This document shows, one piece after another, positions 12,277 to 40,400 of a stretch of DNA of 64,000 nt. Positions within the stretch are counted from its first letter, which is position 1. Every line of letters starts with the position of its first letter. This DNA comes from an uncultured delta proteobacterium. Lineage in GTDB: Bacteria; Desulfobacterota; RBG-13-43-22. The stretch spans positions 66,482-130,481 of the forward strand of contig CAVQSS010000012.1 of the NCBI GenBank assembly GCA_963716045.1, read 5' to 3'. Position numbers and translations under genes: made by a program. The notes beneath the pieces were generated by a model. It was not told where the DNA came from, did not search any database, and saw only the letters and a program-made list of their open reading frames with translations.

Positions 12277-12287
12277 AGATAATCGGA

Positions 12288-18312: not shown

Positions 18313-18341
18313 GGCAGGGACTTTTTTGAAAAAAAAGTCCC

Positions 18342-19022: not shown

Positions 19023-19047
19023 AGGAACCATCCTCCAATAGTTATTT

Positions 19048-20652: not shown

Positions 20653-20715
20653 ACTAACCCTCAGCCCGCCTTGGGCGCCCGCGGAGCATGAAAATATTCT
20701 AAATATTTTTTTTTC

Positions 20716-20888: not shown

Positions 20889-20925
20889 GCTTGACCCCTT
20901 GACCCTATTATTAATTATTTTCGCC

Positions 20926-22629: not shown

Positions 22630-22638
22630 GATCGACCT

Positions 22639-23505: not shown

Positions 23506-23526
23506 CTATTCAATAGTGATCCTAAA

Positions 23527-23572
23527 AATCCCCCCCACCTCCCATTGACCAAAGAGGGAAGAAGGGGGGATT
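23527..23572 (-). terminator. Intercistronic hairpin between livK and livH (possible attenuator or mRNA-stability element)
   Basis: AATCCCCCC (23527-23535) pairs with GGGGGGATT (23564-23572). On the minus strand the hairpin is followed by TTTT. The loop is long and partly self-pairing. Confidence 0.3.
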
Positions 23573-23603
23573 CAGTTTTGATTTAAATTTCAACTATTCT
23601 TGG

Positions 23604-25037: not shown

Positions 25038-26360
25038 TTATGACTTTTCGGGAAGCGCCCGATCAATCAACTCAATCAGGTCGTAGAGTTTCATGGCGCT
25101 GCCTATGCCCTGGGCGCCCTGGTTCAGATTATAATGGCAGAAGGGGCAGATGGAGACCATGTGCTCGGCGCCGGTTTCCAGCCCTTCCTGGACGCGGAGG
25201 GCGGCATTGCGCTGGGCCCAGTCCGGGAAACCGGTCATGACCCCGCCGCCGCCGCCGCAGCAGAAGGAATTGGCCCGGGTTCGTTCCATCTCCACCAGCT
25301 CAATGCCGGGGATGGCCTTAAGGAGGTCCCGAGGGATATCATAGAGGCAGTCCTCTTCGTTCAGACTGATATAGGCCCCGGGCCAGAGCTGGGACCCGTC
25401 TTCGTCCACCAGGTATTTGGTCAAATGCCGGCCCGCGTGGCAGGGATCATGGTAGGTGACCTTCATCGGGACCGGCTGGGAAAAAGTCAATTTGCCGGCC
25501 TGGTGCAGTTCGCTCAGAAACTGCGTCACATGGATGACCCGAATCCCCTTCATCAGGTCCTCGAATTCCCCGGCCAGGGAGTAATCCTTAAGGATGGCCC
25601 GGTAGCAGCCGGCACAGGCGGTGACGATCGTCTGCACCCCCCGGGTTTCGTGCAGATTTTTAAAGGTCTGCAGATTGGCCTCGGCCATCCGTTTAAAGGC
25701 CTCGGCATCGCCCAAACGCATGGCCGTGGAGCCGCAGCAAAGTTCGTTTTCGCCCAGGATGCCGAAATCCACTCCCAGCTTCTGAAAGACCGAGGCCGTG
25801 GCCTGAGGCAGGACCCGGGCCGGGAGGTTGTAGGCGCCGGTGCAGCCCACGAAGTATAAAACCGGGGCCGGTTCCTTATTGATGTCCTTGATGGGTCGTT
25901 TTTCTTTCTTAAAGGGCCGGGTCCAGTCCCAGCGGACCCGTCTCGGGCCCTGGTAGGGATTGTCGTAACTCTTGAGCGATTGGGCGATGACTTTTTGCTG
26001 AGGCAGGGGGCCGGCGCCGGCCTCCACGGCTTTCCGCCGCAGGGCTTCAAAAATTTCCGGGATATGGGGTTTGTGGTCAAGCTGGCACTGGGTCTGGCAG
26101 CCGGCGCAGAGGGTGCAGCGGTAAACGGCCTCGGCCAGTTCATCGTCCCAGTCCAGTTCGCCGCTGAGGATTCCCCGGGCAAAGGCGATTTTCCCCTTGG
26201 AGGCCATAAACCCCTCAAAGCCAAATTCCGTACCCGAGGGGCAGATTTCCCGGCAGCGGGAGGGGGGGCCGTATTCGTAAGTTACTTTACAGGTCCCGCA
26301 GGCCGTGCAGCGCCAGATGGCGTCTTCCAGTTCTTCCAGCGAAGGAATATTCCAATGCAT
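25038..26360 (-). CDS. (Fe-S)-binding CCG-domain oxidoreductase subunit (GlcF/HdrD-like)
   Basis: Two 4Fe-4S motifs (CTACGTCK...CPS; CTLCAGCQTQC) and two CCG motifs (ELCCGS; FCCGGGGG). The ATG at 26360 is preceded by GGAGG; the ORF is open to 26372. Confidence 0.85.
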   Translation of the reverse strand: MHWNIPSLEELEDAIWRCTACGTCKVTYEYGPPSRCREICPSGTEFGFEGFMASKGKIAFARGILSGELDWDDELAEAVYRCTLCAGCQTQCQLDHKPHIPEIFEALRRKAVEAGAGPLPQQKVIAQSLKSYDNPYQGPRRVRWDWTRPFKKEKRPIKDINKEPAPVLYFVGCTGAYNLPARVLPQATASVFQKLGVDFGILGENELCCGSTAMRLGDAEAFKRMAEANLQTFKNLHETRGVQTIVTACAGCYRAILKDYSLAGEFEDLMKGIRVIHVTQFLSELHQAGKLTFSQPVPMKVTYHDPCHAGRHLTKYLVDEDGSQLWPGAYISLNEEDCLYDIPRDLLKAIPGIELVEMERTRANSFCCGGGGGVMTGFPDWAQRNAALRVQEGLETGAEHMVSICPFCHYNLNQGAQGIGSAMKLYDLIELIDRALPEKS

Positions 26361-26375
26361 ACCAACCTCCAATAC

Positions 26376-27806
26376 CTATATCCCCAGTTTCCCGGGATTC
26401 ATAATATCATTGGGGTCCAGGAGTTTTTTCACTTGTTTAAGCAGGGAAAGGTACCCTGGGTGGGCCCGCTGGTTGATCTCCCGGGCAAAGTCCACCGGGG
26501 GCTTGTAGGGCATGCCGCCGTGATCCAGATCAACCTTAAGACACTCCACAATGGCCAGTCGGGCGTTTTCCGTTTCCTGGGGGCTTTTTTTGTTGAAGGG
26601 GATCATGGCCCGGAGCATGCCGTAGTGGACCCCCCGGTACATGCTCATGCGAACCGAAGGAGAGAGGTTGTGCTCGATCAGGATTTTTTTCCAGTCGTTA
26701 TATACCGGGGCCCATTTGTTGGCCGGTGTAAAAGTGCCCGGCCAGGAAATGCCTGCCCCTCCCTGTTTACAGTAGTTTTTGGTGGAGCCCACGATCTGGC
26801 TGGGGAGCTGGGTTCGGGCCCGCAAGGCCTCTTCCGGGTATTGGGTTACCTGGAGGGAGGTCCCTTTCTTTTTCTCTTCTTCGACCACCGTTTCCCAGAT
26901 TTCTTCCCGGGCTTCCTTTTCCTTCTGGGTGAAGGAGTTGGTATTGGCAAAACTGAACCATTCCGGGGCGGAATCGGGTTTGGATTTGAAGGGATAGGGG
27001 ATGGGCACCTGGGCCAGCCACCAGGAAACGGCCGTCAGGTCGTCACAGATTTCATAGTTGCTCAGATTCATCATGTAGGAGACCATGTCTTCCACGTTCT
27101 CGCAGGAGACGGTAAAGACCTTCAAGACCGGCGGAATAGGATGAACGGTGATGCCCAGTTTGGTCACCACTCCGGTGGTGCCCAGCCAGCCTTTGAACAG
27201 GCCGTCCAGTTGGGGCAGGGGCAACACACTATGCCAGGCCTCGGGATTGACGGCGGAAGACCCGACGCGAACCAGCTCTCCGGAGGGCAGGACCACTTCC
27301 ATGCTGGTTATTTCCTGGCTGTTCAGGCCATAGCGGGCATTTAAGCCGCCAATACCATGGTTTATAGCGCAGGAAGAAACCGAAGCCGAGGGGGGGCCCA
27401 CCGGCCAACCGAAGCGCAGATTGTGTTTATAAAGGGCGCTGGCCAACTGGCCATGGGAGACCCCGGGTTCAATAACGGCATAGTGGGATTCGGTGTCTAT
27501 CTTGAGGATCTTATTCATCCGTTTCAGATCCAGAATGATTCCACCCCGTTCCGGTATGGTCAGGCCCCCGATATTGGTACCGGCCGTGTAGGGCACCACC
27601 GGGATCTTCTCCCGGTTGGCCAGTTCCAGGACCGCCTGGATCTGCTCCACGGTGGTGGCCATGACCACATAGTCCGGAAGCTTGGGTTGCACGAAGGACA
27701 TGTCATAGGAGTAGGCATAACGTATATGTTTGGAGGCGGTGGCATTCTTGGGGCCCACGATAGAGACCAACTCATTTAAAACGGCATCTTTGCTGGTGAC
27801 ATGCAT
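26376..27806 (-). CDS. FAD-binding oxidoreductase (PCMH-type, GlcD / D-2-hydroxyacid dehydrogenase family)
   Basis: FAD-binding domain pattern (IPVVPYTAGTNIGGLTIPERGGIILDL..IEPGVSHGQL). 476 aa. Paired with the CCG Fe-S subunit downstream. Confidence 0.8.
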   Translation of the reverse strand: MHVTSKDAVLNELVSIVGPKNATASKHIRYAYSYDMSFVQPKLPDYVVMATTVEQIQAVLELANREKIPVVPYTAGTNIGGLTIPERGGIILDLKRMNKILKIDTESHYAVIEPGVSHGQLASALYKHNLRFGWPVGPPSASVSSCAINHGIGGLNARYGLNSQEITSMEVVLPSGELVRVGSSAVNPEAWHSVLPLPQLDGLFKGWLGTTGVVTKLGITVHPIPPVLKVFTVSCENVEDMVSYMMNLSNYEICDDLTAVSWWLAQVPIPYPFKSKPDSAPEWFSFANTNSFTQKEKEAREEIWETVVEEEKKKGTSLQVTQYPEEALRARTQLPSQIVGSTKNYCKQGGAGISWPGTFTPANKWAPVYNDWKKILIEHNLSPSVRMSMYRGVHYGMLRAMIPFNKKSPQETENARLAIVECLKVDLDHGGMPYKPPVDFAREINQRAHPGYLSLLKQVKKLLDPNDIMNPGKLGI

Positions 27807-27904: not shown

Positions 27905-29422
27905 CTATTTTCGGGCGATGGTCCCTTCCCAGGTGCTGACCTTGGTCTCTTTTTTCTCCTCTTCGCCGAACCAGCGGGAGGTGACACATTTGGATTCCGT
28001 GTAGAAGGCCACCCCGTCTCGGCCCATAACATGGAGGTCGCCGAAAAAGGACTGCTTGTGACCGGAAAAGGGGAAGTAAGAGATGGGCACGGGAATGCCC
28101 ACGTTAACGCCGACCATGCCCGCATGGGTCCGCCGGGAGAATTCCCGGGCGTAATGGCCGCTCTGGGTAAAGATGGCCGACCCATTGGCGAAGGGACTGG
28201 CGTTCATGATGGCCATTCCTTCTTCAAAGTCCTTCACCCGTTTGATGGAGGTCACGGGACCGAAAATCTCGGAGTCACCCACGCTCATCCCGGGCAGGAC
28301 GTGATCAAAAATAGTGGGGCCGATGAAATGACCGTTTTCAAATCCGGGAACGACGATGTCCCGTCCGTCAAGGACCAGTTTCGCGCCCTCGGCGATACCC
28401 TTGTCAATCCATTCGAGGACGGATTTTTTGTGTTCAGCCGATACCAACGGTCCCAGTTCCGTATCGGGATGGTAGGCGCAGCCGATCTTGCGCTCTTTGG
28501 CGAACTTGACCAGGTAACCCATAAACTCATCGGCACAGGCCTCTTCCACACAGAGGGAGGGCAAGGCCATACAGCGCATCCCGGCACATCCAAAGGTCGA
28601 GTTGATAATCCCCAGGGCAGAGCGCTCCAGCGCGGCATCCCGCATAACCAGGGCATGGTTTTTGGCCTCGCAAAGGGCCTGCACTCTTTTTCCGTGGGCC
28701 GCCGCTGTGGAATAAATATGTAAGCCCACTGCCGTGGACCCCACATAAGAAATCCCCTTGATGTCGGGGTGCTTCAGAAGTAATCCGGCTTCATCACGGC
28801 TGCAGGTCACCATATTCACTACTCCCGGCGGCATACCGGCTTCGATGAGCAGCTCCAGAACCCGTGCTGCCGTCTGGGGCGTCAAACTGGCCGCCTTGAG
28901 TACAAAGGTATTACCCATGGTGATGCACAGAGGAATCATCCAGCCGAAGGGGATCATGGCCGGGAAATTGAAGGGTACGATCCCGGCAAAAACACCGATC
29001 GGTTCACGGTACAAGACGGTATCGTGACCGGTGGATACATTCATCAGAGCGTCTCCCTGCATGAGCACCGGAGCGGCACAGGCCAACTCCACAACCTCGA
29101 TACTCTTGAAGATATCCCCTCGAGCTTCATCCAGATTTTTGCCCAGTTCCATGGAAACCGAAAGGGTCAATTCCTCAAGATGCGCTTCGAGCAGTTCCCT
29201 GAAACGGAACATCAAGGCGGTTCTCTGCTGTATAGGCTTGCTCGACCATGCCGGATAGGCCGCTTTAGCCGCCGCCACAGCGCTTTCCACTTCATTATCA
29301 GTGCAACAGGGGGCTGTCGCCATTATCTCACCCGTGCTGGAATTCGTCACCGGCATACATTTGCCTGTGCTGGATTCCCGCCACTCGTTGTTGACACAAT
29401 ACTTCAAATTTTTGAGTGCCAT
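27905..29422 (-). CDS. mmsA: CoA-acylating methylmalonate-semialdehyde / malonate-semialdehyde dehydrogenase
   Basis: 505-aa ALDH-superfamily protein. The C-terminus GVNVGIPVPISYFPFSGHKQSFFGDLHVMGRDGVAFYTESKCVTSRW is characteristic of MmsA. Confidence 0.85.
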   Translation of the reverse strand: MALKNLKYCVNNEWRESSTGKCMPVTNSSTGEIMATAPCCTDNEVESAVAAAKAAYPAWSSKPIQQRTALMFRFRELLEAHLEELTLSVSMELGKNLDEARGDIFKSIEVVELACAAPVLMQGDALMNVSTGHDTVLYREPIGVFAGIVPFNFPAMIPFGWMIPLCITMGNTFVLKAASLTPQTAARVLELLIEAGMPPGVVNMVTCSRDEAGLLLKHPDIKGISYVGSTAVGLHIYSTAAAHGKRVQALCEAKNHALVMRDAALERSALGIINSTFGCAGMRCMALPSLCVEEACADEFMGYLVKFAKERKIGCAYHPDTELGPLVSAEHKKSVLEWIDKGIAEGAKLVLDGRDIVVPGFENGHFIGPTIFDHVLPGMSVGDSEIFGPVTSIKRVKDFEEGMAIMNASPFANGSAIFTQSGHYAREFSRRTHAGMVGVNVGIPVPISYFPFSGHKQSFFGDLHVMGRDGVAFYTESKCVTSRWFGEEEKKETKVSTWEGTIARK

Positions 29423-29615: not shown

Positions 29616-30506
29616 CTATAACGAACGTTTGGTTATGCCGGTCGGGGGTTGGGAAGCCAGATACAGCGGGCTGGTCCCCACCCGCTTCAAAATTACCCCC
29701 CGGTTTTTCATCAGCGGATCTCCCTCGGCTACCACCCGGGCCCCCGGGTTCAGGAGCAGGTGCCAATGATTGCCGTTCCAGGTCTGGGGAAATTCCAACG
29801 GATCAAAGGGGTCTGTTTTGGTAGCCAGAGCCATGTATTTGCCCACCGCGATGATGTCGTTGGCCATGGCCACCTGGGAGGCTACCGGGTCTTTCTGGAT
29901 CAGGCATTCCAGAATGAGCCGATGGGACTTACGCACCTCCCGGTAAAAATCCTGCCCCAGGTTCAATTCCGCCTTGAGCCCTTTCAAGAGGTCGTCCACA
30001 AAATCAACCAAAACGGCCAACAGGGTGTTGCCCGCCATCCGGGCCAAATACCGGTGGAACCCGATTTCCTTGGTAACTTCATGCGTCCCGGAGGTGATCG
30101 TCCGGCCGATGATTTTTTTCAGATTAAGAATATCTTTTTCGGTGATTCTAGTGGCGGCGATCTGGGCCACGGTCGGTTCGATCAGGTAGCGCAACATGGT
30201 GATCTCTTTGACCGAGACTTTCTGGAGGTGAAGGAAGGTAATCAGGTTGTGGATAGTGGTGCGCATATCCACTTCTGCCACAAAAGCACCGCCGGAAGTC
30301 CCTTTGCGCATTTCGATCAGGCCCATGACTTCCAGGACCCTAAGGGCCTCCCGCAGGGTGCCTTTGCTTACCCCGAACTGGGTCAGGAGCTCCCTTTCGG
30401 AGGCTAGTTTGTCGCCCGGTTTCAACTGGCCGGAAAGAATAACATCCCGAATTTGATCGATAATTTTATCGGAAACCTTATCCGTTTTGTTGGCCGTCTG
30501 GAACAA
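29616..30506 (-). CDS. GntR-family (FadR/FCD-type) transcriptional regulator with a C-terminal extension
   Basis: wHTH LKPGDKLASERELLTQFGVSKGTLREALRVLEVMGLIEMRKGTSGG followed by an FCD-like helical domain. TTG start. Confidence 0.8.
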   Translation of the reverse strand: MFQTANKTDKVSDKIIDQIRDVILSGQLKPGDKLASERELLTQFGVSKGTLREALRVLEVMGLIEMRKGTSGGAFVAEVDMRTTIHNLITFLHLQKVSVKEITMLRYLIEPTVAQIAATRITEKDILNLKKIIGRTITSGTHEVTKEIGFHRYLARMAGNTLLAVLVDFVDDLLKGLKAELNLGQDFYREVRKSHRLILECLIQKDPVASQVAMANDIIAVGKYMALATKTDPFDPLEFPQTWNGNHWHLLLNPGARVVAEGDPLMKNRGVILKRVGTSPLYLASQPPTGITKRSL

Positions 30507-30616: not shown

Positions 30617-30646
30617 TTGACTTTTAATCCGGTCCTTTACTATGAT
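30617..30646 (+). promoter_or_regulatory. Candidate sigma70-type promoter for the ferredoxin/AOR-like/cytochrome cluster
   Basis: TTGACT (30617-30622), an 18-nt spacer and TATGAT (30641-30646), in the AT-rich region divergent from the GntR gene. Confidence 0.25.
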
Positions 30647-30719: not shown

Positions 30720-31070
30720 ATGGGAGTCAAAATCGATCCGTTGAAATGCACGGCCTGCATGGCCTGCGAAATGGCCTGCGGGTATCATCGGGACGACGCT
30801 TTCGCGCTGCTCTCGGCCTGCATCGTTACCTACCGGACTAAAGAGAAAAAAGATTATTTCGGAGTGATATTGAAAGAGGAGGACAGCCTGGTCATCGCCC
30901 GGCCGGAAGGGCTGGAGGTAAAAAAGATCGGTGAGGTCGATGAAAAGTCCAAGGGCGATGCCTCGGCCAAACCCATGTTGCTCCGTGAACCCTGCGACCT
31001 CTGCCAGGACCGGGAGAGCGGCCCCCTGTGTTTGCAGTTCTGTCCGGTGGATGCCATCTACTTAGATTAA
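30720..31070 (+). CDS. Small 2x[4Fe-4S]-type ferredoxin-like protein
   Basis: CTACMACEMAC and CDLC...CLQFCP motifs. 116 aa. Confidence 0.8.
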   Translation: MGVKIDPLKCTACMACEMACGYHRDDAFALLSACIVTYRTKEKKDYFGVILKEEDSLVIARPEGLEVKKIGEVDEKSKGDASAKPMLLREPCDLCQDRESGPLCLQFCPVDAIYLD

Positions 31071-31081
31071 AGGAGATCTCC

Positions 31082-32389
31082 GTGGAATATCTTTCGTCCA
31101 ATAAAATAGCCATTGTGGATTTAGGGAAGGTCGAGGTCGGGGAAGAAGAACTGGAAGACTCCCTGGTTCAGGAAAAGATCGGCGGAGCCGGAATCACTAC
31201 CGCCTTATACCGGCGTTTCGAAGCCGAGGATCCCATCGTGATCGGAACCGGGCTGCTGACCGGCACCCTGGTCCCCGGGTCGGCCCTGGGTCTGGTGACG
31301 GCCAAAAGCCCTCTATCCGGTAAAGCGGCTCACGCCCCCTTGACCTTAACCCTAGGGATGGAGCTGAAGTTTTCCGGGTTTGATTATATCGTTATTAAGG
31401 GAGCTTCGGCCAAGCCGGTGTACCTGTGGCTCCATGACGGGATTCTGGATATTCAACCTGCGGATGAAATCTGGGGCCAGGATACTTTGGCCTCTACGGA
31501 TGCCATCCGCCTGACCCTGGGCGATGACCTGATCCAGGTTCTGACCATCGGCCCGTCCGGCGAAGCGGGGTCTTCCCTGTCCCAACTTATTGTCAATTAC
31601 TGGGGCAGCGGCGACCGCTGGGGTTTCGGCGGGCTGTTCGGTTCAAAAAAGCTGAAAGGGATTGCCGTCAGGGGCCTGGGGCTCCTGGAAATTTCCGACC
31701 CGGAGGGATTTATAGCCCGGTGTCAGTCCCTGCTTTCCGAAATCAAGCAAGGCTCCTGGGCCGGGAAAAAAGGCCTTCCGGATATGGCGGCCGCCCTGGG
31801 GGAGAATGACGTGGCCGGTTGGTTGGGGCCCATTATCCATCGCCACAAATCCTGCTTTAACACCCCTTTTGCCACCAATACCTTTGTTTACCTGGATGAA
31901 GACCCCAGGCTTTATAAGGAGCCCGATGGGGCCGATCCCGGCTTTCTAATTAACGACATCTACGGGCTCCTGGCCTTTAAAAAGATCGGACTTTCCGCCG
32001 TCGATGCCTGCCGTCTGCTGAAACATTGTGCCCGATTGGGCCTGGATCCGGCCGCCGTGGCCGAATTGAGCCTGAAAGCCGGGTACCGGGACGCCGAAAG
32101 CATCAGACAATCCTTAGCCAGACTGCAGGGAACCCTGGAATGTGTAGGGCAATCGCCTTTCAGTCCCTGGACCCCGATGAAACCGATCTTTGCCGATTTC
32201 GGGGTGGCAGCCGACGAGGCCTGGTGGAGACGCCGGCAGGCCCTGGCCTACATTTTTGGTATTCACCCCTTGTTCGCGCTCATGGCCCCGGAACTGACGG
32301 AGGATGTCCTGTCCGAACTGGCGGGCCTGGGAACGGGGATGGAGTTTACATCGGAAACGTTGGAAAAAGTGATGAACGACATTGGTTAA
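31082..32389 (+). CDS. Aldehyde:ferredoxin oxidoreductase (AOR)-family paralog, short and lacking the cluster-binding Cys motif
   Basis: AOR N-domain pattern (KIAIVDLGKVEVGEEEL..EKIGGAGITTALY ... GFDYIVIKGASAKPVYLWL..IWG) and LGLD-type segment (CARLGLDPAAV). The GTG at 31082 has AAGGAG 7 nt upstream. About 435 aa against about 600 for canonical AORs. Confidence 0.6.
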   Translation: MEYLSSNKIAIVDLGKVEVGEEELEDSLVQEKIGGAGITTALYRRFEAEDPIVIGTGLLTGTLVPGSALGLVTAKSPLSGKAAHAPLTLTLGMELKFSGFDYIVIKGASAKPVYLWLHDGILDIQPADEIWGQDTLASTDAIRLTLGDDLIQVLTIGPSGEAGSSLSQLIVNYWGSGDRWGFGGLFGSKKLKGIAVRGLGLLEISDPEGFIARCQSLLSEIKQGSWAGKKGLPDMAAALGENDVAGWLGPIIHRHKSCFNTPFATNTFVYLDEDPRLYKEPDGADPGFLINDIYGLLAFKKIGLSAVDACRLLKHCARLGLDPAAVAELSLKAGYRDAESIRQSLARLQGTLECVGQSPFSPWTPMKPIFADFGVAADEAWWRRRQALAYIFGIHPLFALMAPELTEDVLSELAGLGTGMEFTSETLEKVMNDIG

Positions 32390-32440
32390 CCGGCCATCAC
32401 TAAGCCTTTAGGGGGGAGAAGCGGTTTTGAATTTTGAAAA

Positions 32441-32489
32441 TTTGGTCATTTGGATTTGTTTCGGATTTCGGATTTCGGGTTTCGAATTT
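32441..32489. repeat. GAAATCCGAAAT-family repeat copy
   Basis: tttggtcatttggatttgtttcggatttcggatttcgggtttcgaattt is about 90% identical to 1545-1592. Confidence 0.85.
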
Positions 32490-32527
32490 CTTCATGTCTC
32501 TCTGGGTGATTAGGCCGGACTACCATC

Positions 32528-33727
32528 GTGGGGCCTCATTTGGAAAACCCTCCCATCGCCATCTACACCGGCCGCGGTAGTTCCCATTCCTGGCTTTGGT
32601 TCGTCGATATCTTCGAACGGGCCAACCTGACGGACTTGGCCTTTTTCGATCAGGACGACCTCAAGGCCGGGTGTCTGGAACAGAGCCGGGTCCTGGCCGT
32701 CTCGGGAGGGGATACCTTCGCCTTGGCGGAAGGTCTGGGCCAGGAAGGAGCCGCGGCTTTGGAGTCCTGGGTCCGAAACGGGGGCCTTTACCTGGGCTCC
32801 TGCGCCGGCGCCTACCTCCCCTTGTGTTCTTCGAAAGACCCGCTGGACCTTTTTAATTTTGTGGAAGCAAGAATCAGCAATCTGACTTCCATACTGCCGG
32901 AACCCAGGAAATTCAAAGAGAAGTTCAGCCAGCCATACGGCTGCTCCTTTATCTACCACCCGGTTCGAGAAGCGGTCCGAATTTCCGCCAACGGCCACGA
33001 GCCTTTTTCCGGGATAGGCGATTTCCCGGCCCCGCTTTACGGAGGCCCGGCCCTGATCCCGCAGAACACCATTGAAACCCTAGCCTGGTACAGCGGCTTC
33101 ACCGAAAAGACAGCCTTTCTGGTGGATCAGGAATTGGCCCGGGAAACCTTGATCGGGAAGGCGGCCGTAATTCGAAAAAGGATGGGTTCCGGCGCCTTCT
33201 ATTTGTTCGGCCCCCATCTGGAACATCCCCATTTCCTGAAAGCCAATCAATTGGTTATTGATACGATCCGGTTTGAACAGAAATCCGAACCAGGGGTTTC
33301 GGATTCCAAGCCCGAAGCGGAGTTGATTCGCGATCAGCGCCTGGTCAGGGATTGGGTCCGGGCGTTCAAACGGGAGTTGAGCAACGCCCGAATTGTGGTT
33401 TCCGGAATCGAAAACGATCCGATCTTCTGGCAGATCGGCCGCAAGATCTACGAACCGCTCAAGATGCGGGTCTTTCTGGAGGCCCTCTGGAAACGGATAC
33501 CAACGCTGGAAAAAGCAGGGTGGCTGGTGGTCCCGGGCCGGTGCCAGGGTTTGATTGAAAACGCCAGGGCCCTAACCGAAAAGGTGCGGCGCCTGAAATA
33601 TCGTTTGGATCAGAAACAGGAATCCACCCCGCTGGCGGAAGAGATTTTCAATCTCTTAAAACGTTTGGCTCCGGATTTCCTTTTACTTTACTTTGCCACT
33701 AAAAAGGTCGCCTTTCATGTGGCTTAA
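32528..33727 (+). CDS. Hypothetical protein with an N-terminal class-I glutamine-amidotransferase-like (BPL_N-like) domain
   Basis: IAIYTGRGSSHSWLWFVDIFE...VLAVSGGDTFALAEGLG...NGGLYLGSCAGAYL resembles the BPL_N/GATase1-like fold. The rest is unrecognised. GTG start. Confidence 0.4.
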   Translation: MGPHLENPPIAIYTGRGSSHSWLWFVDIFERANLTDLAFFDQDDLKAGCLEQSRVLAVSGGDTFALAEGLGQEGAAALESWVRNGGLYLGSCAGAYLPLCSSKDPLDLFNFVEARISNLTSILPEPRKFKEKFSQPYGCSFIYHPVREAVRISANGHEPFSGIGDFPAPLYGGPALIPQNTIETLAWYSGFTEKTAFLVDQELARETLIGKAAVIRKRMGSGAFYLFGPHLEHPHFLKANQLVIDTIRFEQKSEPGVSDSKPEAELIRDQRLVRDWVRAFKRELSNARIVVSGIENDPIFWQIGRKIYEPLKMRVFLEALWKRIPTLEKAGWLVVPGRCQGLIENARALTEKVRRLKYRLDQKQESTPLAEEIFNLLKRLAPDFLLLYFATKKVAFHVA

Positions 33728-34589
33728 TAAAAAAATGCCGCTGTTGTTTTTGGTTCACTCGCTGCTGGTGTGCGGAGTTCTGCTATTTGCCGGCCCGATC
33801 GGGGCCCGGGAGATCCCTCCCGACTCTACCTGGTTTATCGACTTGAGCCGCTTTTCCCGGTCCGCCCATGGGACCCTGAACTGTGAAGCCTGTCACGGGA
33901 CTATGAAAATACCGGGAAAGATCCATCCGGAGGCCAACGATCCTCAATTCCTTCGAAGGGAAGCCACCCGGATCTATGACTACGACCGCTGCCGATCCTG
34001 TCACCGCCCGGCTTATGAGCGCACTCGGTCAGGGGCCCATGCCCAGGCCCTGCAGAAGGAAAAGGAGGGGGCCGGTTCGGGAAGAACGGCGGATTCCCAA
34101 AAACATCCGGCCCCCGCCTGTGGGAACTGCCATTCCTCCCATTACGTTAAGGCCCATCGGTCTCGACTCGATCTCGGGCGCGAGATGACCGGAACCTGCG
34201 GCGCCTGTCACCCGGCCCAGGCCGCCTCTTACCTGGAAAATTCCCACGGCAAAAAGGCCGTCTATCTGGGAAAGATCAACTCCGCCTTCTGTACCGACTG
34301 CCACGGGGCGCACCAGTGCCGATCCCTGAAAGACCGGAAAGATGCCCTGGAGGCCTGTCAACGCTGCCACCCTCAGGCCCGGGAGCAGTTGGCCGGCTTC
34401 GTCATCCACGCCACCGATCGGGGCTTGACGGAAAAAGACCGGGATAAGAAGTACCGCATCGATGTGATCCGGACGGTCACCCTGGGGATGCTGGTGCTGG
34501 TCGTCGGTCTGGTGGCCTTTTTCTACGGGCACAGTTTTATCTGGCTCCTGCGGGAACTCCACGAAAAACTGAAAAGGCGCAGGCCATGA
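33717..34589 (+). CDS. Hexaheme c-type cytochrome with a C-terminal membrane anchor
   Basis: Six CxxCH motifs (CEACH, CRSCH, CGNCH, CGACH, CTDCH, CQRCH). Signal-like MWLNKKMPLLFLVHSLLVCGVLLFA and a C-terminal TM helix. The ORF is open from 33693. Confidence 0.85.
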   Translation: MWLNKKMPLLFLVHSLLVCGVLLFAGPIGAREIPPDSTWFIDLSRFSRSAHGTLNCEACHGTMKIPGKIHPEANDPQFLRREATRIYDYDRCRSCHRPAYERTRSGAHAQALQKEKEGAGSGRTADSQKHPAPACGNCHSSHYVKAHRSRLDLGREMTGTCGACHPAQAASYLENSHGKKAVYLGKINSAFCTDCHGAHQCRSLKDRKDALEACQRCHPQAREQLAGFVIHATDRGLTEKDRDKKYRIDVIRTVTLGMLVLVVGLVAFFYGHSFIWLLRELHEKLKRRRP

Positions 34590-35290
34590 GCGCCGACCGT
34601 CAGGAACATAATTCCATGATCCGGTTTCCGGTCATCCACCGGCTGCTGCACTGGGTCATCATGGTGGGCTTTATCAGCCTGGCGCTGACCGGCTTTTCCC
34701 TGAAGTTCAGTTCCCAGGCCTGGGCCCAGTGGATCGTTTCCCTGCTGGGGGGGGCCGGCTGGACCGGGTACTGGCACCGCTTCTGGGCGGTTATCACTTA
34801 CTGCGGCGTGGTGGCGCACCTGGGCTGGCTGTTCTATTTCAAAGCCGTTCTGAAGGGTCGCCTTACCGGACCGCAATCGGCTTTCCCCGGCGGCAAGGAT
34901 GTAAAGGACCTGACTGCGCATATCAAGTATTTCCTGGGGAGAGGACGTCCGCCTCAATTCAATCGATTTACCTACTGGGAAAAACTGGACTATTGGGCCA
35001 TGCTGGCAGGGATGAACACCATGGGTCTGACCGGATTGGTCTTGTGGTACCCCTTGTTTTTCAGCGGCTGGCTGCCCGGGTATTTTATCAACCTGGCCCG
35101 GATACTGCATTTGTACGAAGCCCTGCTGGCCGTGGCTTTGAAGTTTGTGGTCCACCTGGTCACCGCCCATCTGCGCCCGGAGGTCTACCCTTTGGACAAA
35201 TCCATTTTTGACGGAAAGACCACTCCGGAAAGGATGAAACAAGAACATCCCGGGGAGTGGGAGGAATGGGTGCGGAGGAAGAACGGTTAG
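34586..35290 (+). CDS. Membrane di-heme cytochrome b-like subunit (FdnI / Ni-Fe hydrogenase cytochrome b family)
   Basis: Four to five TM helices with conserved His (VIHRLLHWVIM.., WHRFW.., ILHLYEALL..VVHLVTAHL). The start overlaps the upstream stop (ATGA). Confidence 0.6.
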   Translation: MSADRQEHNSMIRFPVIHRLLHWVIMVGFISLALTGFSLKFSSQAWAQWIVSLLGGAGWTGYWHRFWAVITYCGVVAHLGWLFYFKAVLKGRLTGPQSAFPGGKDVKDLTAHIKYFLGRGRPPQFNRFTYWEKLDYWAMLAGMNTMGLTGLVLWYPLFFSGWLPGYFINLARILHLYEALLAVALKFVVHLVTAHLRPEVYPLDKSIFDGKTTPERMKQEHPGEWEEWVRRKNG

Positions 35291-35302
35291 TACGGGAATA
35301 AA

Positions 35303-35339
35303 GACGAACATCGAACATTGAACGTCCAACATCGAATTT
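35303..35339. repeat. GAACATCGAACATTGAACG-type repeat
   Basis: gacgaacatcgaacattgaacgtccaacatcgaattt matches the reverse complement of 46274-46306 (aaacgaacattgaacatcgaacgcccaacctcg). Confidence 0.75.
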
Positions 35340-35366
35340 AGAAACGTAGGGCAAGCGTCTCGCTGT

Positions 35367-36824
35367 ATGCAAAATAAAAGAATAAAAATCCTGCTGCTGT
35401 TTCTAATTCTGGCGGCCCTGCTGGCCGGCGGCCCGAATGTCGATTTCGCCTTTGCGGCGGAACCGGCCACCATGCCCCTCATGGTTGACGGGAAGGAGCG
35501 GGTTTGTCTCGATTGTCACCGCCGGCCGAACATTCAGAGCAACGAAGGGGCCTTTGCCTCTCAAACCCTGTGTTTCGAGTGCCACGGCCGGGTGGGCATT
35601 AAGCGGAAGTGGGGCGAAGCCGATATATCCCTGAAGGTAACCCCTGAATCCTTCGCCGGCAGCCGTCACCGGGCGGTGGCCTGCATCGCTTGTCATCTAG
35701 ATGTGGCCCGATCTCCCCATCGAACCCGGGTCGGGGCCCAATGCCTTTCCTGCCACACCGTTCACGGAGAAGGGACCGTTCATGACCCGCATCTCCGGGT
35801 AAGCTGTCAGGCCTGCCACCGGCAGTCTTCGGAAGTGACCTTGAACAAGACCACCGACCGGGTGGTCCTGTCCCGACTGAACGACCGGGGCGTTCCCCTT
35901 GTCTTGACCGATCACCGCCTGCCGGATACCCGAGACCAGGCCTTCTGTCAGCGCTGTCACCGGCCGGGGAATACCGTCGGGGCGGCCGCGGCGGTGCTGC
36001 CCGCCAAGAGCATTCTTTGCCTGCCCTGCCACTATGCCCCCATCGCCATCGGGCATTCCCTGTTCTGGTCGGCTCTGGTTGTTTTTGGCCTGGGTCTCCT
36101 GCTGACCGGTATGTTCTGGCTCGGCGGCAGCGTGCAGGGAGAGGAGAAATCGGTCCACCGAAAAATCGCCCTCGGTTCGGAAGCGGCCTGGTCGGCCCTT
36201 TTCTCCAGGCAAATCTGGGCGATCTTGAAAACCTTTTTCTTTGATGTGCTGCTCCAGCGGAGGATCCTGCAGGAGAGCGTCCAGCGCTGGTCCATCCATT
36301 CCCTGATCTACTACGCCATACTGCTCCGGTTCGGGTTGGCCCTGTTTACTCATTTTTCTTATTTTTTCAAGCCCGGCGGCGCCCTGGCCTACGCCCTGAT
36401 CGATAAAAATCATCCTTTTGTGGCTTTGACGAACGACCTCCTGGGCCTGTTCATCGTTTTGGGCCTGGCCGCCGCGATCATCCAGCGATTCGTGGTGAAA
36501 CCGCCCCACGTGGTCAGCGAGTGGAAAGACAACTGGGCTTTAACCATCATCGGGGCTCTGGTTCTCGTGGGTTTCATGCTGGAGGGGGTCCGCATCCTGG
36601 TTACCCAGGTCCCGGCTGAAAAGGCGGCCTATTCGTTCGTGGGCTATCTTCTTTCATTGCTCTTCGCCGTTTTCCCGTCGGACTGGTCGATCATCTATGT
36701 CTATCTCTGGTATGCCCATGCCGTCTTGGGAGCCCTGCTGGTGGCCTACCTGCCCTTCGGGAAATTGAAGCATATTTTCGTGACGCCGCTGAGCCTGGTG
36801 TCGCAGTATAAAAAGAAGGATTAA
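35367..36824 (+). CDS. Fusion protein: periplasmic heptaheme cytochrome c plus a NarI/DsrM/HdrE-like integral membrane domain
   Basis: Seven CxxCH motifs in the first ~215 aa (CLDCH, CFECH, CIACH, CLSCH, CQACH, CQRCH, CLPCH), then 5-6 TM helices resembling the nitrate-reductase-gamma-like family. Confidence 0.75.
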   Translation: MQNKRIKILLLFLILAALLAGGPNVDFAFAAEPATMPLMVDGKERVCLDCHRRPNIQSNEGAFASQTLCFECHGRVGIKRKWGEADISLKVTPESFAGSRHRAVACIACHLDVARSPHRTRVGAQCLSCHTVHGEGTVHDPHLRVSCQACHRQSSEVTLNKTTDRVVLSRLNDRGVPLVLTDHRLPDTRDQAFCQRCHRPGNTVGAAAAVLPAKSILCLPCHYAPIAIGHSLFWSALVVFGLGLLLTGMFWLGGSVQGEEKSVHRKIALGSEAAWSALFSRQIWAILKTFFFDVLLQRRILQESVQRWSIHSLIYYAILLRFGLALFTHFSYFFKPGGALAYALIDKNHPFVALTNDLLGLFIVLGLAAAIIQRFVVKPPHVVSEWKDNWALTIIGALVLVGFMLEGVRILVTQVPAEKAAYSFVGYLLSLLFAVFPSDWSIIYVYLWYAHAVLGALLVAYLPFGKLKHIFVTPLSLVSQYKKKD

Positions 36825-37042
36825 TTTTTTTGCCGCAGACTCACACGGACAAAGGCGGGCAAAAATGGTCCCACAGGATTTACAGGATAGAAAGAAACTT
36901 TTTGCTTTTTCGGTAAAGACGCCCAAAAAAGCAAGAGACTCCATCACTTCGCAAACGTTTGATTTTGCGTGCCTGAAGCTTGAGAGGTAAGCCAGAGGAA
37001 AGGTGACAGATGCTTTATAGTTCCCTCCCCCTTAACGGGGGA

Positions 37043-37156
37043 GGGGCTTCGACGTGAGCTCAGCCGAACGTTAGGGCGGGGGTGAAACCTTTTGGAGTGA
37101 AGATTCCGGAAGTCACCCACCCCCCAAACGTTCGGCTGAGCTCACGTCGAAGCCCC
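37043..37156. repeat. Perfect 30-bp inverted repeat separated by 54 nt (GGGGCTTCGACGTGAGCTCAGCCGAACGTT family)
   Basis: 37043-37072 is the exact reverse complement of 37127-37156. It is flanked by CCCTCCCC/GGGGAGGG mini-hairpins. Related copies lie at 20716-20888 and 46160-46250. Confidence 0.9.
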
Positions 37157-37234
37157 CTCCCGTCGAGGGAGGGGGAGCACCTATACCATTTATTACCATA
37201 TTTTTTTCAATGCTTATTTTTACAGGGAAATATA

Positions 37235-38669
37235 ATGACAGAAGAAGTTTCGGTTGAAACCAGCGTTCCGGTTAGTCCGGCGGAGCCCCAACCCCCTGGG
37301 CCTGTTGAACCCGAGCTGGAAGCCAAGCCCGAGCCGGCCCGCGAGATCCCGCTTTCCAATTTATCCGCTTCCCGATTGATTCAGCTCGAGGCCTGTACCC
37401 GCTGCGGTGAATGCCTGAACTGGTGCCCGGTCCACGATCAGGACGCCCGGGAACCGGTCATCCCGCGGAAGAAAATCGCCGATTTCCTGCACATCGTGAA
37501 GAACCAGCAGTCCCTGCTGACCCGGATCATGAAACAGGAAAAAATCGAGCGATCCGATCAAAAAACTGCTGGCCGCAGTCTTCCGCTATAAAGAGGTCGG
37601 TCAAGTCGAAGTCGATGAATTTGTCCGCAACCTGTATGAATGTTCCACCTGCGGGCAGTGCCAAGTGGTCTGCCCGGCCAACATCGATACGGTCAACCTC
37701 TGGGAGGATATCCGCCGTCTGATCGTGACCGCCGGTTACGGCCCGCTGGAGTCCGCAGAAGGTCCTGGTAAAAAGCGTCAAGGCCTACGACAATCCCTGG
37801 CAGCAGCCGCGGGCCGCCCGCACCAAGTGGGCGCGCCGGGCGCAAAAAGACGTCCTGATTGCGCCCCGCCGCGGGAGATCAAGAAGAACGGGGCCAAGGT
37901 CCTGCTCTGGCTGGGGTGTACGGCGGTCTATGACGTCAACGTGAAACAGATCGCCATCAGCACCATCAATATCCTGGAAAGCCTGGGGATCGACTACGGC
38001 TGCCTGGGCGGCGACGAAAAATGCTGCGGCAGCGTGCTCCTGCGCATGGGAGACGCGGAATTCGGACGGATCGCCGGCGACAACATCAAACAGCTCAACG
38101 CCCTGGGCATCCAGACCCTGGTCAGTTCCTGCTCCGGTTGTTTCAAGACCATCAAGGAGGACTACCCCAAGGTGGGAAAGCTGAATTTCGAGGTGCTTCA
38201 TACCGTAGAATACCTGCGGCGGTTGCTGGAAGATAAGAAACTGCCTTCCTTCGAACCCCTGGAAAAAAAGATCACCTACCATGATCCCTGCCATCTGGGC
38301 CGGGCCAGCGGCGTCTTTGATGATCCCCGCATTATCCTGGGCGCCATCCCGGGTCTGGAGCTGATCGAAATGCCCCGTAGCCGGGAATATTCCCGGTGCT
38401 GCGGCGCCGGCGGGGGGCTCAAGGCCGGCTACCCGGATATCCAGAACAAGATGGCCCAGGAACGGGTGAAGGAGGCTCAGGCCACCGGGGCCCAGGAATT
38501 GATCTCGGCCTGCCCCTTCTGCTACGCCGGTCTTCAGGTGGGGATTAAAGCCATGGATTCCCCCCTGGTCATGAAGGACGTGACCGGCCCTGGTGGAAGA
38601 ATCGCTTATAAAGAAGGCCGGCTGATAACCGGCGCTGGACCCGTAAAAAGTCCCTTCGTACCATTCTGA
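37235..38669 (+). pseudogene. HdrD/DsrK/GlcF-like CCG-domain Fe-S oxidoreductase, disrupted by frame changes
   Basis: The N-terminal part is in frame 2 (37235-37591; CTRCGECLNWCP). The remainder is in frame 0 (homology from about 37545; track ORF 37665-38669; CSTCGQCQVVCP, EKCCGS, RCCGAGGG). An internal ~110-nt stretch has its homologous reading in frame 1. A paralog lies at 25038-26360. Confidence 0.8.
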
Positions 38670-38686
38670 ATCCTTTTATAGAATAC

Positions 38687-38714
38687 TTGACATGGCTATA
38701 ATTATAGCTATAAT
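38687..38714 (+). promoter_or_regulatory. Consensus sigma70 promoter with an embedded 14-bp perfect palindrome
   Basis: TTGACA (38687-38692), a 16-nt spacer and TATAAT (38709-38714). The spacer contains GCTATAATTATAGC (38695-38708). Confidence 0.45.
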
Positions 38715-38959
38715 ATTTTCTAATTAACCCCCCCCATGCCCCAGGGGGCAACCGCGAAGCATGAGAATCGCGGGCGTGGGAGCCCGCTCTGCTTGGGTTA
38801 GCCGGGCCTTCCATCTTCCCAGCGGAGGCGGCTCCCACGCCGCCGAAACCAGGAGCTAAGGTAGAGACCGGCTCAGTCTTGGAGATCGAGTCGGTCTGAG
38901 CGCTTATGGGCTCGGAATTCTATTTTCGTGTCAAGGAAATTGAAAAGAGGTTTTAAGAG

Positions 38960-39241
38960 ATGAACCGCAGGGTATCGGTGGCTGAGGCCAAAAATAAGCT
39001 CCCAGCCATTATCCATGAAGTGGAAAAAGGTTCGGTGGTGGAGATCACCCGGTATGGCCGATCCGTGGCCTTTGTAGTCCCCCAAAAGGATTTTGAGCGG
39101 CTGCAGGAGAAAGGCGGGGGATTTTGGGAGGCCCTGATCAAGGTTAGAAATATCATGAAGGCCGAGGGGATAGTTATGGAGGACCGTGATTTTTTCGACC
39201 TTCGGGATGCTTCGCCGGGACGCCCAGTCGATCTGGATTGA
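38960..39241 (+). CDS. Phd/YefM-family antitoxin
   Basis: The N-terminus VSVAEAKNKLPAIIHEVEKGSVVEITRYGRSVAFVVP is typical of Phd/YefM. The gene abuts the PIN toxin gene. Confidence 0.8.
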   Translation: MNRRVSVAEAKNKLPAIIHEVEKGSVVEITRYGRSVAFVVPQKDFERLQEKGGGFWEALIKVRNIMKAEGIVMEDRDFFDLRDASPGRPVDLD

Positions 39242-39658
39242 ATGAAATATCTTTTAGACACCAGCCTGATCTCCGAACTGAGTAAACCCAAACCTGATCG
39301 GAGGGTGGAAAAAAGATGCAGCCAGTACCGGCAGGAGCTGGCTACCGCCGCTCCGGTCTGGCATGAATTGCAATACGGATGCCAGAGATTGCCTCAATCC
39401 CGTAAAAGGGAACTATTGGAATTATTCCTGGAAGAGGTCGTTTCGAAAAAATTGCCGATACTCCCTTACGATGAACAGGCCGCCAGATGGCATGCTCTCG
39501 AAAGGGCGCGCTTATCCTTGACGGGTCGGACACCATCCTTTGCAGACGGACAAATTGCTGCCATCGCACTTACCAATGGGCTGACGCTGGTAACCAGGAA
39601 TCTGAACGATTTTCGTTTTTTCTCCGGACTGCTTTTGGAAAACTGGCATACCGCTTAA
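39242..39658 (+). CDS. vapC: PIN-domain toxin VapC
   Basis: Acidic PIN residues are in the expected places (LLDTS, WHELQYG, FADGQIAA, TRNLNDF). 138 aa. Confidence 0.85.
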   Translation: MKYLLDTSLISELSKPKPDRRVEKRCSQYRQELATAAPVWHELQYGCQRLPQSRKRELLELFLEEVVSKKLPILPYDEQAARWHALERARLSLTGRTPSFADGQIAAIALTNGLTLVTRNLNDFRFFSGLLLENWHTA

Positions 39659-39713: not shown

Positions 39714-40400
39714 GTGTATTGGGTCCCCAAGGAGGATGCCAACAGGCTGAGGCAGGCCCTGGCCCGAAGGGAAGTGGATGTCACCGAGATAAGAAAAGCG
39801 GTCTGCCTGCCCCTGTCCCGGCGGGTGGAAGTCGGCCTGGTGGCCCCGGAGGTCTGGGAAGATTATGCCTTGTGCCGGAGGCAGTTTTCCTGGTACCGCC
39901 ATTCCCCCCGGCAGGGCCAGACCCTGGTGGTCAGCTCCGATCCCTTACCCGGGGTCGCAGGTGGCCCCGCCGTCATTATTCAAGATTCCTCTTTTCGTCC
40001 TCCCGCGCTGCCCGACCGGGAGGCTCAGACAGCCTTGATTCAACGGGAAAGCTACCGGAGTTCCCGGCCGGAGGAATGGGAGAACATCGGGGCCGAAGAC
40101 CGGGAGGCGCAACAGAAATGGTTGAAGGTCATGGGCCTCCAGGGCCTGACCTTCGAGGAATTATTTATCAGCCATTGTGCTAACCACGCCAATTTCATCG
40201 AACCGGCCTATCAGGTCCTGGAAGACCACCATCCCGTTCCCTACTCCCTGGGCAAGACCCGCACGGTCTGCTCGGCCTGCCTGGAATTCTATAATATCAT
40301 CGGATCGCCTTTTAAAAGAAAATATGTGGTCCCCTGCCCAGGGGCGGTACTGTTTGCCGGGATGGTCCCCAATCACTATTATGAGGTGATCAGTCCCTGA
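39714..40400 (+). CDS. Hypothetical protein with a C-terminal Cys/His-rich region
   Basis: 228-aa ORF with protein-like composition, unlike the Arg/Gly/Pro-rich alternative frame at 39719-40183. The C-terminus is ISHCANHANFIEP...TVCSACLEF...VVPCPG. No family recognised. Confidence 0.5.
   Translation: MYWVPKEDANRLRQALARREVDVTEIRKAVCLPLSRRVEVGLVAPEVWEDYALCRRQFSWYRHSPRQGQTLVVSSDPLPGVAGGPAVIIQDSSFRPPALPDREAQTALIQRESYRSSRPEEWENIGAEDREAQQKWLKVMGLQGLTFEELFISHCANHANFIEPAYQVLEDHHPVPYSLGKTRTVCSACLEFYNIIGSPFKRKYVVPCPGAVLFAGMVPNHYYEVISP

Follow-up and report, generated by a model that had tools for sequence, protein, structure and literature searches.

Gene content and conservation of the cluster

The window analysed here is a stretch of 64 000 nt from an uncultured delta proteobacterium (GenBank assembly GCA_963716045.1, contig CAVQSS010000012.1, positions 66 482–130 481). 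It contains a cluster of redox genes that are all transcribed on the forward strand between positions 30720 and 38669. The original prediction, made from the sequence of the window, described an uncharacterised unit of seven genes encoding, in order, a ferredoxin, a short AOR-family protein (here called the mini-AOR), an amidotransferase-like protein, a hexaheme cytochrome c, a cytochrome b, a heptaheme cytochrome c fused to a NarI-like membrane domain and a cytoplasmic protein with CCG motifs (genes 1–7). All seven were found, and the open reading frames (ORFs) of genes 1–6 are intact in both the ORF listing and a three-frame translation, but the frame of gene 7 is broken in this genome. Domains were assigned using Pfam and NCBIfam profile searches and membrane topology using a simple hydropathy scan, which detected no transmembrane (TM) helices in the products of genes 1, 2, 3 and 7 or of an additional gene, gene 8, described below. 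The regulatory gene from which the cluster diverges (29616–30506, reverse strand) had been called GntR, and Pfam matches to both GntR and FCD support this assignment; it is present in 47 of 55 loci. The gap between it and gene 1 includes one promoter-like site in each direction (30617–30646 on the forward strand and 30575–30546 on the reverse strand), each with 10 of 12 consensus positions matched, and these are consensus matches only.

Synteny was examined using tblastn searches with the window proteins, and loci with at least 7 kb of sequence downstream of the mini-AOR gene were retained (n=47). The order ferredoxin, mini-AOR, amidotransferase-like protein, hexaheme cytochrome, cytochrome b, heptaheme-NarI protein and CCG protein was kept in 40 of these 47 loci, each from a different species-level metagenome-assembled genome (MAG). 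Chance adjacency of the genes is ruled out by this synteny, and the cluster is a real, conserved, co-directional module, as the original prediction had supposed when it proposed a search for the gene order across the Desulfobacterota. Carriers comprise at least 105 species-level genomes belonging to the Desulfobacterales, Desulfatiglandales, Desulfarculaceae, Desulfomonilaceae, Syntrophaceae and relatives. The scan, which took one genome per species, returned 105 genomes, and the 80 that were kept are all MAGs. The unit is not confined to seven genes, as roughly half of the loci include an eighth and a divergently transcribed flavoprotein arm is tied to the cluster. No paper naming or describing the cluster was found in the literature that could be searched, nor was a named complex matching it, and the description of the cluster as uncharacterised holds to that extent.

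Membrane cytochromes and the HdrD-type protein

Gene 4 (33693–34589, forward strand, start codon uncertain by about 40 nt) encodes a CbcA-like hexaheme cytochrome c with an N-terminal signal or anchor sequence and a C-terminal TM helix bearing His280. Both helices were detected in the hydropathy scan, in agreement with the proposed membrane anchoring. Six CXXCH motifs are present in all 56 orthologs, and His280 is conserved in 93 %. The start of gene 5 (34586–35290, forward strand) overlaps the stop codon of gene 4, and its product is a di-heme cytochrome b of the PF01292 family that includes HydC, FdnI and CbcB (52.3 bits, cut-off 30.1), with His22, His64, His175 and His190 conserved in 100 % of orthologs. 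It had been described as FdnI-like. The family assignment stands, but with 48.5 bits, where 115.9 are required, the protein does not qualify as an FdnI equivalog.

In Geobacter, CbcA is a multiheme cytochrome c on the periplasmic side, held in the membrane by a C-terminal TM helix that includes a conserved His, and CbcB is a PF01292-type di-heme cytochrome b (10.1101/2021.04.15.440034). When architecture alone is compared, genes 4 and 5 share with CbcBA, and with CbcL, a four-TM PF01292-type di-heme cytochrome b beside an anchored multiheme cytochrome c. They differ from CbcBA in having six hemes rather than seven, and in lying inside an operon with Hdr-like and cytoplasmic proteins. Rather than a mere cytochrome plus FdnI, the two genes are predicted to encode a CbcA/CbcB-type, quinone-interacting bc module with six c-hemes.

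Gene 6 (35367–36824, forward strand) encodes a signal peptide, a heptaheme domain and a NarI-type membrane domain. The predicted fusion was recovered both as a match to Nitrate_red_gam (31 bits, cut-off 22.9) and as a signal peptide followed by about five TM helices in the hydropathy scan. All 50 orthologs have seven CXXCH motifs, and the anticipated total of 13 c-type hemes, six from gene 4 and seven from gene 6, is invariant in the 56 and 50 orthologs, respectively. His264, His311, His451 and His469, the predicted heme ligands of the NarI domain, are 94–100 % conserved. The signal sequences and topology support a periplasmic location for the heme domains of genes 4 and 6, and conservation at this level indicates that the heme and Fe-S sites are under selection.

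The product of gene 7 (37232–38669, forward strand; Pfam CCG, 7e-33) is an HdrD-type protein with motifs for two [4Fe-4S] clusters and two CCG motifs. In its orthologs 18 Cys are 98–100 % conserved (n=47), and Pfam CCG was matched in two stretches together with Fer4_8. It had been described as HdrD/DsrK-like, and of these only the HdrD part can be retained. Membership of the DsrK, TmcB or HmcF families was ruled out by hidden Markov model scores and by motif count, as an intact ortholog scored 75 bits against DsrK (cut-off 400), 89 against TmcB (735) and 68 against HmcF (750), and the gene 7 protein has two CCG motifs and no ECGH. DsrK, TmcB and HmcF have one CCG motif and a T/GECGH cysteine, while HdrD and HdrB have two CCG motifs (10.1101/2023.08.03.551783). 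The best NCBIfam match of the ortholog was TfrB, below threshold, and the true DsrK of this genome (724 bits) is encoded on another contig. Genes 6 and 7 are predicted to form an HdrE/HdrD-like pair in which the NarI-type di-heme b domain carries seven periplasmic c-hemes.

The membrane part follows the order set out in the original prediction, from periplasmic c-hemes through membrane b-hemes to a cytoplasmic CCG protein. This logic is already known, unlike the combination and the cytoplasmic proteins. TmcABCD, HmcABCDEF and DsrMKJOP likewise include a periplasmic multiheme cytochrome c, a membrane cytochrome b and a cytoplasmic CCG protein, but here a single polypeptide comprises both cytochromes, c and b, the NrfCD-type module (DsrOP or HmcBC) is absent, and there are two CCG motifs instead of one plus the T/GECGH cysteine (10.1101/2023.08.03.551783). 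The HdrDE complex of Methanosarcina and EMO, the electron transfer flavoprotein (ETF):methylmenaquinone oxidoreductase of Syntrophus aciditrophicus, are similar in that a NarI/HdrE-type cytochrome b is paired with a cytoplasmic partner containing two CCG motifs and two clusters of the ferredoxin type. They differ in that the b subunit here is fused to a periplasmic heptaheme domain, and the operon includes a separate bc module and four extra cytoplasmic proteins. The locus also has no coenzyme M/coenzyme B or ETF partner, and the candidate flavoprotein is of the PCMH/VAO type.

Cytoplasmic proteins

Gene 1 (30720–31070, forward strand) encodes a 116-aa ferredoxin that matches Pfam Fer4. The motifs CxxCxxCxxxC and CxxCx8Cx3CP are separated by an insert of about 65 aa, and each of the eight Cys is kept in 95 % or more of 80 orthologs, consistent with the two [4Fe-4S] clusters predicted for it. 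In the loci examined it is always immediately 5' of the mini-AOR gene.

The mini-AOR (gene 2, 435 aa) extends from 31082, the true start as fixed from orthologs, to 32389 on the forward strand. It matched AFOR_N (1e-44), and no AFOR_C match was found for gene 2 even when a six-frame search was included, whereas seven canonical AORs encoded in the same genome do match AFOR_C. An alignment-based AlphaFold2 model (pLDDT 94.3, pTM 0.93) was matched by Foldseek to 1aor (E 4e-27, TMq 0.82) and to eight other AOR-family chains, and hhalign aligned the family with canonical AORs at 100 % probability over 427 columns. According to the model, the three-domain AOR fold is retained in miniature. The earlier description as a short AOR is correct with respect to the fold, but three of the four [4Fe-4S] Cys and about 170 residues of the pterin-binding domains have been lost. 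In a profile alignment of the clade that includes the window's protein, CxxCxxxC is replaced by SCFNTPFAT and the distal GxC motif by FGIHP, and across 83 mini-AOR orthologs no Cys is at least 95 % conserved. The hhalign comparison located the missing residues as a block of about 120 aa from domains 2 and 3 and the last 75 aa or so. One GLD motif is kept. Leu69 and Gly175 are aligned with Arg76 and Arg182 of 1aor, which we take to be the phosphate-binding arginines of the Pyrococcus furiosus enzyme.

More than 120 close homologs of 428–441 aa were found in public data, all from uncultured Desulfobacterota, and the length kept in these homologs rules out a truncated pseudogene. An exhaustive search of 50 %-identity representatives identified 89 clusters at E < 1e-30, of which about 60 are full-length matches of 400–500 aa, with identity down to 27 %. 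Distant short members retain C[FY]xCPxxC and GICP, so the loss of the Fe-S ligands is specific to the operon-carrying clade. One distant short AOR (29 % identical, Fe-S motif intact) was found at the end of a bifurcation-type cluster (L025/L026, 1–11311). That cluster also includes a full-length AOR, a ferredoxin, two HdrA-like flavoproteins, an MvhD/FlpD protein, a polyferredoxin and a split molybdopterin enzyme resembling formate dehydrogenase.

One explanation of the locus would make gene 2 a respiratory tungsten or molybdenum aldehyde oxidoreductase of Class V (YdhV type), which passes electrons from an aldehyde to ferredoxin and then to the membrane cytochromes. Class V enzymes, too, combine an AOR-family protein with a ferredoxin-like partner and have membrane and cytochrome subunits in the operon (PMC13328260). 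The AOR fold, the ferredoxin partner (as in BamBC and AorAB), a YdhV-type model as the best NCBIfam match of the N-terminal domain and an adjoining aldehyde dehydrogenase gene all favour this. However, the mini-AOR differs from Class V proteins in having no C-terminal Pfam domain or Fe-S ligands, and probably no pterin. The missing AFOR_C match, the loss of three of four cluster Cys in this clade, the missing pterin-domain residues, the Leu and Gly at the two arginine positions and the lack of any strongly conserved Cys all count against it. As the ligands have been lost, a working tungsten AOR fits the data less well; it was rejected as a function for gene 2, and we consider the explanation built on it highly improbable. 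For such a cofactor-depleted miniature, it is doubtful that gene 2 represents the substrate side as an AOR.

Gene 3 (32528–33727, forward strand) encodes a 399-aa protein resembling class-I glutamine amidotransferases and the peptidase S51 clan. The GATase1/BPL_N-like assignment made previously is upheld by a Pfam BPL_N match over residues 52–97 only (42.6 bits, cut-off 24.2) and by an intact Cys-His-Glu triad. Cys92 aligns with the nucleophilic Ser of PepE. Among 70 orthologs, conservation reaches 95 % or more for Cys92 (in GSCAG) and for His230 and Glu232 (both in GPHLEHP). The C-terminus is a helical extension of about 165 aa. Since the nucleophile-elbow Cys and the His-x-Glu are conserved, the protein looks catalytically competent, as an enzyme of the amidotransferase, amidase or acyl-enzyme type.

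Gene 8 (39714–40400, forward strand) encodes a conserved 228-aa protein whose orthologs directly follow the CCG gene in at least 25 loci. Cys31, Cys54, His158 (in HCANHANFIEP), CSAC (186–189) and PCPG (207–210) are invariant. Searches of Pfam, NCBIfam and the PDB, a profile search included, gave no match. The protein may act in the system as a partner that binds metal or is redox-active. A deaminase-like H..E/CxxC pattern was a by-eye impression only and is not claimed. Genes 1–3, and often gene 8, can be regarded as a putative cytoplasmic set of a ferredoxin, a mini-AOR, an amidotransferase-fold enzyme and a Cys-rich protein.

The divergent flavoprotein arm

To the left of the GntR/FCD gene, an arm on the reverse strand encodes a CoA-acylating aldehyde dehydrogenase of the (methyl)malonate-semialdehyde type (MMSDH-type; 27905–29422; TIGR01722, 545 bits, cut-off 448), a PCMH/VAO-like flavoprotein (26376–27806) and a second HdrD-like protein, CCG' (25038–26372; Pfam CCG and Fer4_8; NCBIfam TfrB-like, 7e-51). 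CCG' is intact, is 37–40 % identical to the gene 7 protein and is conserved beside the flavoprotein. The operon continues with an Urt/Liv-type ABC transporter (19951–24920, reverse strand), identified using NCBIfam and Pfam, that consists of a binding protein with a TAT-type signal, two permeases and two ATPases; it is kept in many loci or swapped for a 460-aa permease. A corrinoid protein and a URO-D/MtaA-like protein are also encoded in the left arm.

The only full-length structural relative of the flavoprotein detected by sequence is p-cresol methylhydroxylase (PCMH; 1dii/1wve, 2e-36), and the Tyr aligned with the covalent FAD-linking Tyr is kept. It is the best-conserved protein of the whole locus, with 72–96 % identity across orders. 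Of the 55 loci whose upstream sequence is long enough, 46 have the flavoprotein/GntR arm next to the operon. Genes for the heme-NarI fusion, the mini-AOR and the flavoprotein are found in exactly the same 12 of 41 related genomes, and the other 29 have none of the three, with the exception of two mini-AOR homologs that are distant. In one genus (n=14), the three genes co-occur in five carriers, as against nine non-carriers. The flavoprotein/HdrD-like arm is both physically and phylogenetically tied to the operon, making it a candidate for the substrate side, which the original prediction had considered unclear.

Arginase-family and URO-D/MtaA-like proteins recur beside the flavoprotein arm in several orders (window positions 12564–13637 and 17041–19112; L074, 977–3392), and in the window the corrinoid protein is found there as well. 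These neighbours hint that the substrate may be an aryl methyl ether or a compound that is methylated or carries a guanidino group. Two candidates were considered: methoxylated or 4-substituted phenols, from the PCMH/VAO protein together with the URO-D and corrinoid proteins, and a guanidino or beta-alanine-type compound, from the arginase-family protein, the Urt-like transporter and the MMSDH-type enzyme. For neither was the support strong enough for it to be adopted. An ORF for a group II intron reverse transcriptase/maturase (10954–12276; RVT_1 and GIIM) separates the arginase-family gene from the remainder of the left arm.

Variants of the operon

Two variants of the common order were found. 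In variant B (three loci), a NarI protein with one c-heme is accompanied by a Rieske protein, a split cytochrome b and a fusion in which the CCG protein is joined to a cytochrome c domain and a single TM helix. In variant C (four loci), only NarI and the CCG protein are left of the membrane part. Both retain genes 1–3, NarI and CCG, with the multiheme proteins swapped or dropped; the minimal variant C has NarI and CCG with genes 1–3 and 8. A further example of variant B was found in another family of the phylum, where the mini-AOR is 37 % identical. The multiheme and FdnI-like parts are exchangeable, being replaced in some loci by a Rieske/cytochrome b complex or by nothing. In two further lineages (L096 and L108), the ferredoxin/mini-AOR pair has FAD_binding_4 flavoproteins and a CCG protein as neighbours, and cytochromes are missing. 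These contexts and the variants together indicate a recurrent partnership in which the ferredoxin and mini-AOR are joined by an HdrD-like protein and a flavoprotein of the VAO/GlcD type, with the membrane module as the variable element.

The variants bear on whether the operon serves electron export, extracellular or interspecies, with the CbcBA-like pair and the heptaheme fusion discharging quinol or cytoplasmic electrons outward to periplasmic or outer-surface cytochromes. Thirteen c-hemes would suit such a role, as would the resemblance of genes 4 and 5 to Geobacter CbcBA, which is required for low-potential extracellular respiration (10.1101/2021.04.15.440034), and Desulfatiglandales MAGs with C7/C554-type cytochromes have been discussed alongside conductive minerals (PMC13343851). 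However, no outer-membrane conduit or porin genes are present in the loci examined, and the locus is probably co-regulated with a catabolic operon. Export also fits less well because the variants lack the multihemes yet keep genes 1–3, NarI and CCG, and we regard it as quite improbable.

State of the locus in this genome

Gene 7 was compared in three-frame translation, and in DNA and protein alignments, with the intact 468-aa ortholog of a congeneric genome (L011; G003). Four single-nucleotide indels were found (at approximately 37546, 37752, 37861 and 38588), mostly at short homopolymers, and they split the reading frame into ORFs at 37082–37591 and 37665–38669. The first divides the protein between the two ferredoxin motifs, the second and third compensate for one another yet scramble about 36 residues, and the fourth alters the C-terminus. 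From these changes gene 7 is probably a pseudogene and inactive in this genome, in which case only the paralog CCG' could serve. All eleven genes around gene 7 have unbroken frames, as do seven long canonical AOR genes at other places in the genome, making a generally error-ridden assembly unlikely. This argues indirectly that gene 7 has truly decayed, or at the least that the problem is a local one. Overall, the system in this particular genome appears to be partly decayed. Disruptions were also seen in two other genomes of the same family, namely in G019:C5:186349-195625, where stops or altered frames affect the mini-AOR, the flavoprotein and the heme-NarI fusion, and in G012:C111:5195-6564, where there is one TGA inside the fusion, and repeated decay of the locus or assembly errors may be behind them.

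The spacer between genes 6 and 7 (36825–37231, 408 nt) includes an inverted-repeat element of about 155 nt, with copies on other contigs detected by blastn against the genome; in relatives this spacer is from 3 nt to about 100 nt long. Short palindromic repeats resembling REP or MITE elements, with dozens of copies genome-wide, occupy this spacer and those at 32390–32527 and 38670–38959, and a 65-nt unit in the gene 2/3 spacer gave more than 40 blastn matches. Between genes 7 and 8 there is an insertion that is not part of the system (38687–39658, forward strand). It consists of a sigma-70 promoter, TTGACA-16-TATAAT (12 of 12 consensus matches), and a phd/vapC-like toxin-antitoxin pair of ORFs (38960–39241 and 39242–39658). 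The phd/vapC insertion is absent at the corresponding place in two other loci (L022 and L030). It marks the edge of a variable region and has displaced gene 8.

Proposed function

The alignments and the synteny establish the cofactor-binding anatomy of the proteins and the genetic coupling of the two arms. Our preferred interpretation, to which we assign a probability of roughly 45 %, is that the two-armed locus, under regulation from its shared GntR/FCD intergenic region, encodes a membrane-coupled dehydrogenase system. An imported organic substrate would be oxidised by the covalent-flavin dehydrogenase, and the electrons would pass into the non-cubane clusters of the HdrD-like protein or proteins, docked on the NarI domain. 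They would then traverse the membrane via the NarI b-hemes to the periplasmic hemes, from which the CbcBA-like module, or in variant B the Rieske/cytochrome b (bc1-like) complex, would return them to menaquinone. Because the electrons would leave on the positive side of the membrane, such a loop could draw on the proton-motive force, which would pay for electron transfer from a covalent flavin of rather high potential into quinones that, in a sulfate reducer, are of low potential. The ferredoxin, mini-AOR and amidotransferase set may be a second cytoplasmic partner of the HdrD-like subunit, either substrate-processing or electron-accepting.

Parts of this scheme have precedents. In the EMO of Syntrophus aciditrophicus, electrons pass directly from the ETF flavin to non-cubane clusters and then to b-hemes, and quinone reduction is driven by the proton-motive force (10.64898/2026.08.18.745454). 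In Geobacter metallireducens, according to PMC4122944, which cites Peters 2007 and Johannes 2008, PCMH is clustered with a bc1 complex that has a split cytochrome b, and a reversed Q cycle to menaquinone was proposed. Both systems have a PCMH or PCMH-like flavoprotein genetically tied to a membrane cytochrome complex, and variant B likewise has a Rieske protein and a split cytochrome b. The flavoprotein here differs from the G. metallireducens enzyme described there in being cytoplasmic, in having an HdrD-like partner in place of the c-type cytochrome subunit, and in the absence of Tyr95 of the phenolate triad. A more specific version, a new 'reverse redox loop' dehydrogenase assisted by the proton-motive force in which HdrD-type non-cubane clusters are the adaptor from flavin to membrane, the heptaheme-cytochrome b fusion is the transmembrane wire, and the AOR, stripped of its cofactor, has a new non-tungsten function in the same complex together with the ferredoxin and the amidotransferase-fold enzyme, is unlikely.

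Several observations weigh against the dehydrogenase interpretation. The direction of electron flow is inferred only, genes 1–3 are left with no explained role, and two HdrD-like paralogs per locus are superfluous for a single pathway. The flavoprotein has no counterpart of Tyr95 in the phenolate-binding Tyr-Tyr-Arg triad, and Tyr-Lys takes the place of Tyr473-Arg474. The operons of variants B and C are not adjacent to the flavoprotein gene, although five of six such genomes encode an 80–83 % identical flavoprotein elsewhere. The co-occurrence was counted among related MAGs, which are not phylogenetically independent. Finally, the neighbouring genes, encoding MMSDH-type dehydrogenase, URO-D/MtaA-like, corrinoid and arginase-family proteins, diverge in what they imply.

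The main rival to the dehydrogenase system is an inward conduit resembling Tmc, Hmc or DsrMK, in which quinol or periplasmic electrons would flow through genes 4–6 to the HdrD-type protein, and this would reduce a cytoplasmic disulfide or persulfide. The disulfide would be carried or made by the proteins of genes 1–3 and 8, for example the gene 8 product or the Cys92 enzyme. The arrangement of periplasmic c-hemes, NarI-type cytochrome b and CCG protein is that of Tmc, Hmc and Dsr, and two CCG motifs are the heterodisulfide-reducing arrangement of HdrD and HdrB (10.1101/2023.08.03.551783). The invariant gene 8 cysteines and the minimal variant C, with NarI and CCG beside genes 1–3 and 8, are also in line with it. 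Homologs of the heme-NarI fusion and the CCG protein flank genes for a GcvH-like lipoyl carrier and a lipoate ligase in an unrelated genome, a context that points to dithiol chemistry. However, the CCG protein is outside TmcB, HmcF and DsrK, and this genome has a separate DsrK. No DsrC-like or other known thiol carrier is encoded in the locus, and an electron-donating role better suits an operon so closely linked to the genes of a catabolic flavoprotein, an aldehyde dehydrogenase and a transporter. We consider an inward conduit rather unlikely.

A locus of this kind (L021; G037:C1:3282000-3300000, approximately 6500–12500) was found in a high-GC genome of another family. There, a homologous 576-aa multiheme-NarI fusion precedes a GcvH-like protein, a 402-aa HdrD-like CCG protein and a lipoate-protein-ligase-like ORF, with a LipB-LipA fusion and a 2-oxoacid dehydrogenase E1/E2/E3 set immediately upstream. 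This arrangement suggests a membrane complex that acts on a lipoyl carrier protein.

Significance

The cluster is absent from the named complex sets Dsr, Tmc, Hmc, Qrc and Cbc. The locus unites modules that have been studied apart, namely an HdrDE/EMO-like pair, a CbcBA-like module, a bc1-like complex, a PCMH-like flavoprotein and an AOR relative. The mini-AOR family consists of AOR-fold proteins of about 430 residues in about 90 clusters at 50 % identity, and it is outside the 2026 classification of tungsten oxidoreductases, for which only proteins with both AOR domains were taken (PMC13328260). For what had been an orphan electron-transfer operon, the flavoprotein arm provides a concrete and testable partner.

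In sulfate reducers and syntrophs, which live close to what thermodynamics allows, the range of usable substrates is set by the membrane redox complexes. If the proposed reverse redox loop is correct, it would allow low-potential anaerobes to oxidise a relatively high-potential substrate via a PCMH-like enzyme.

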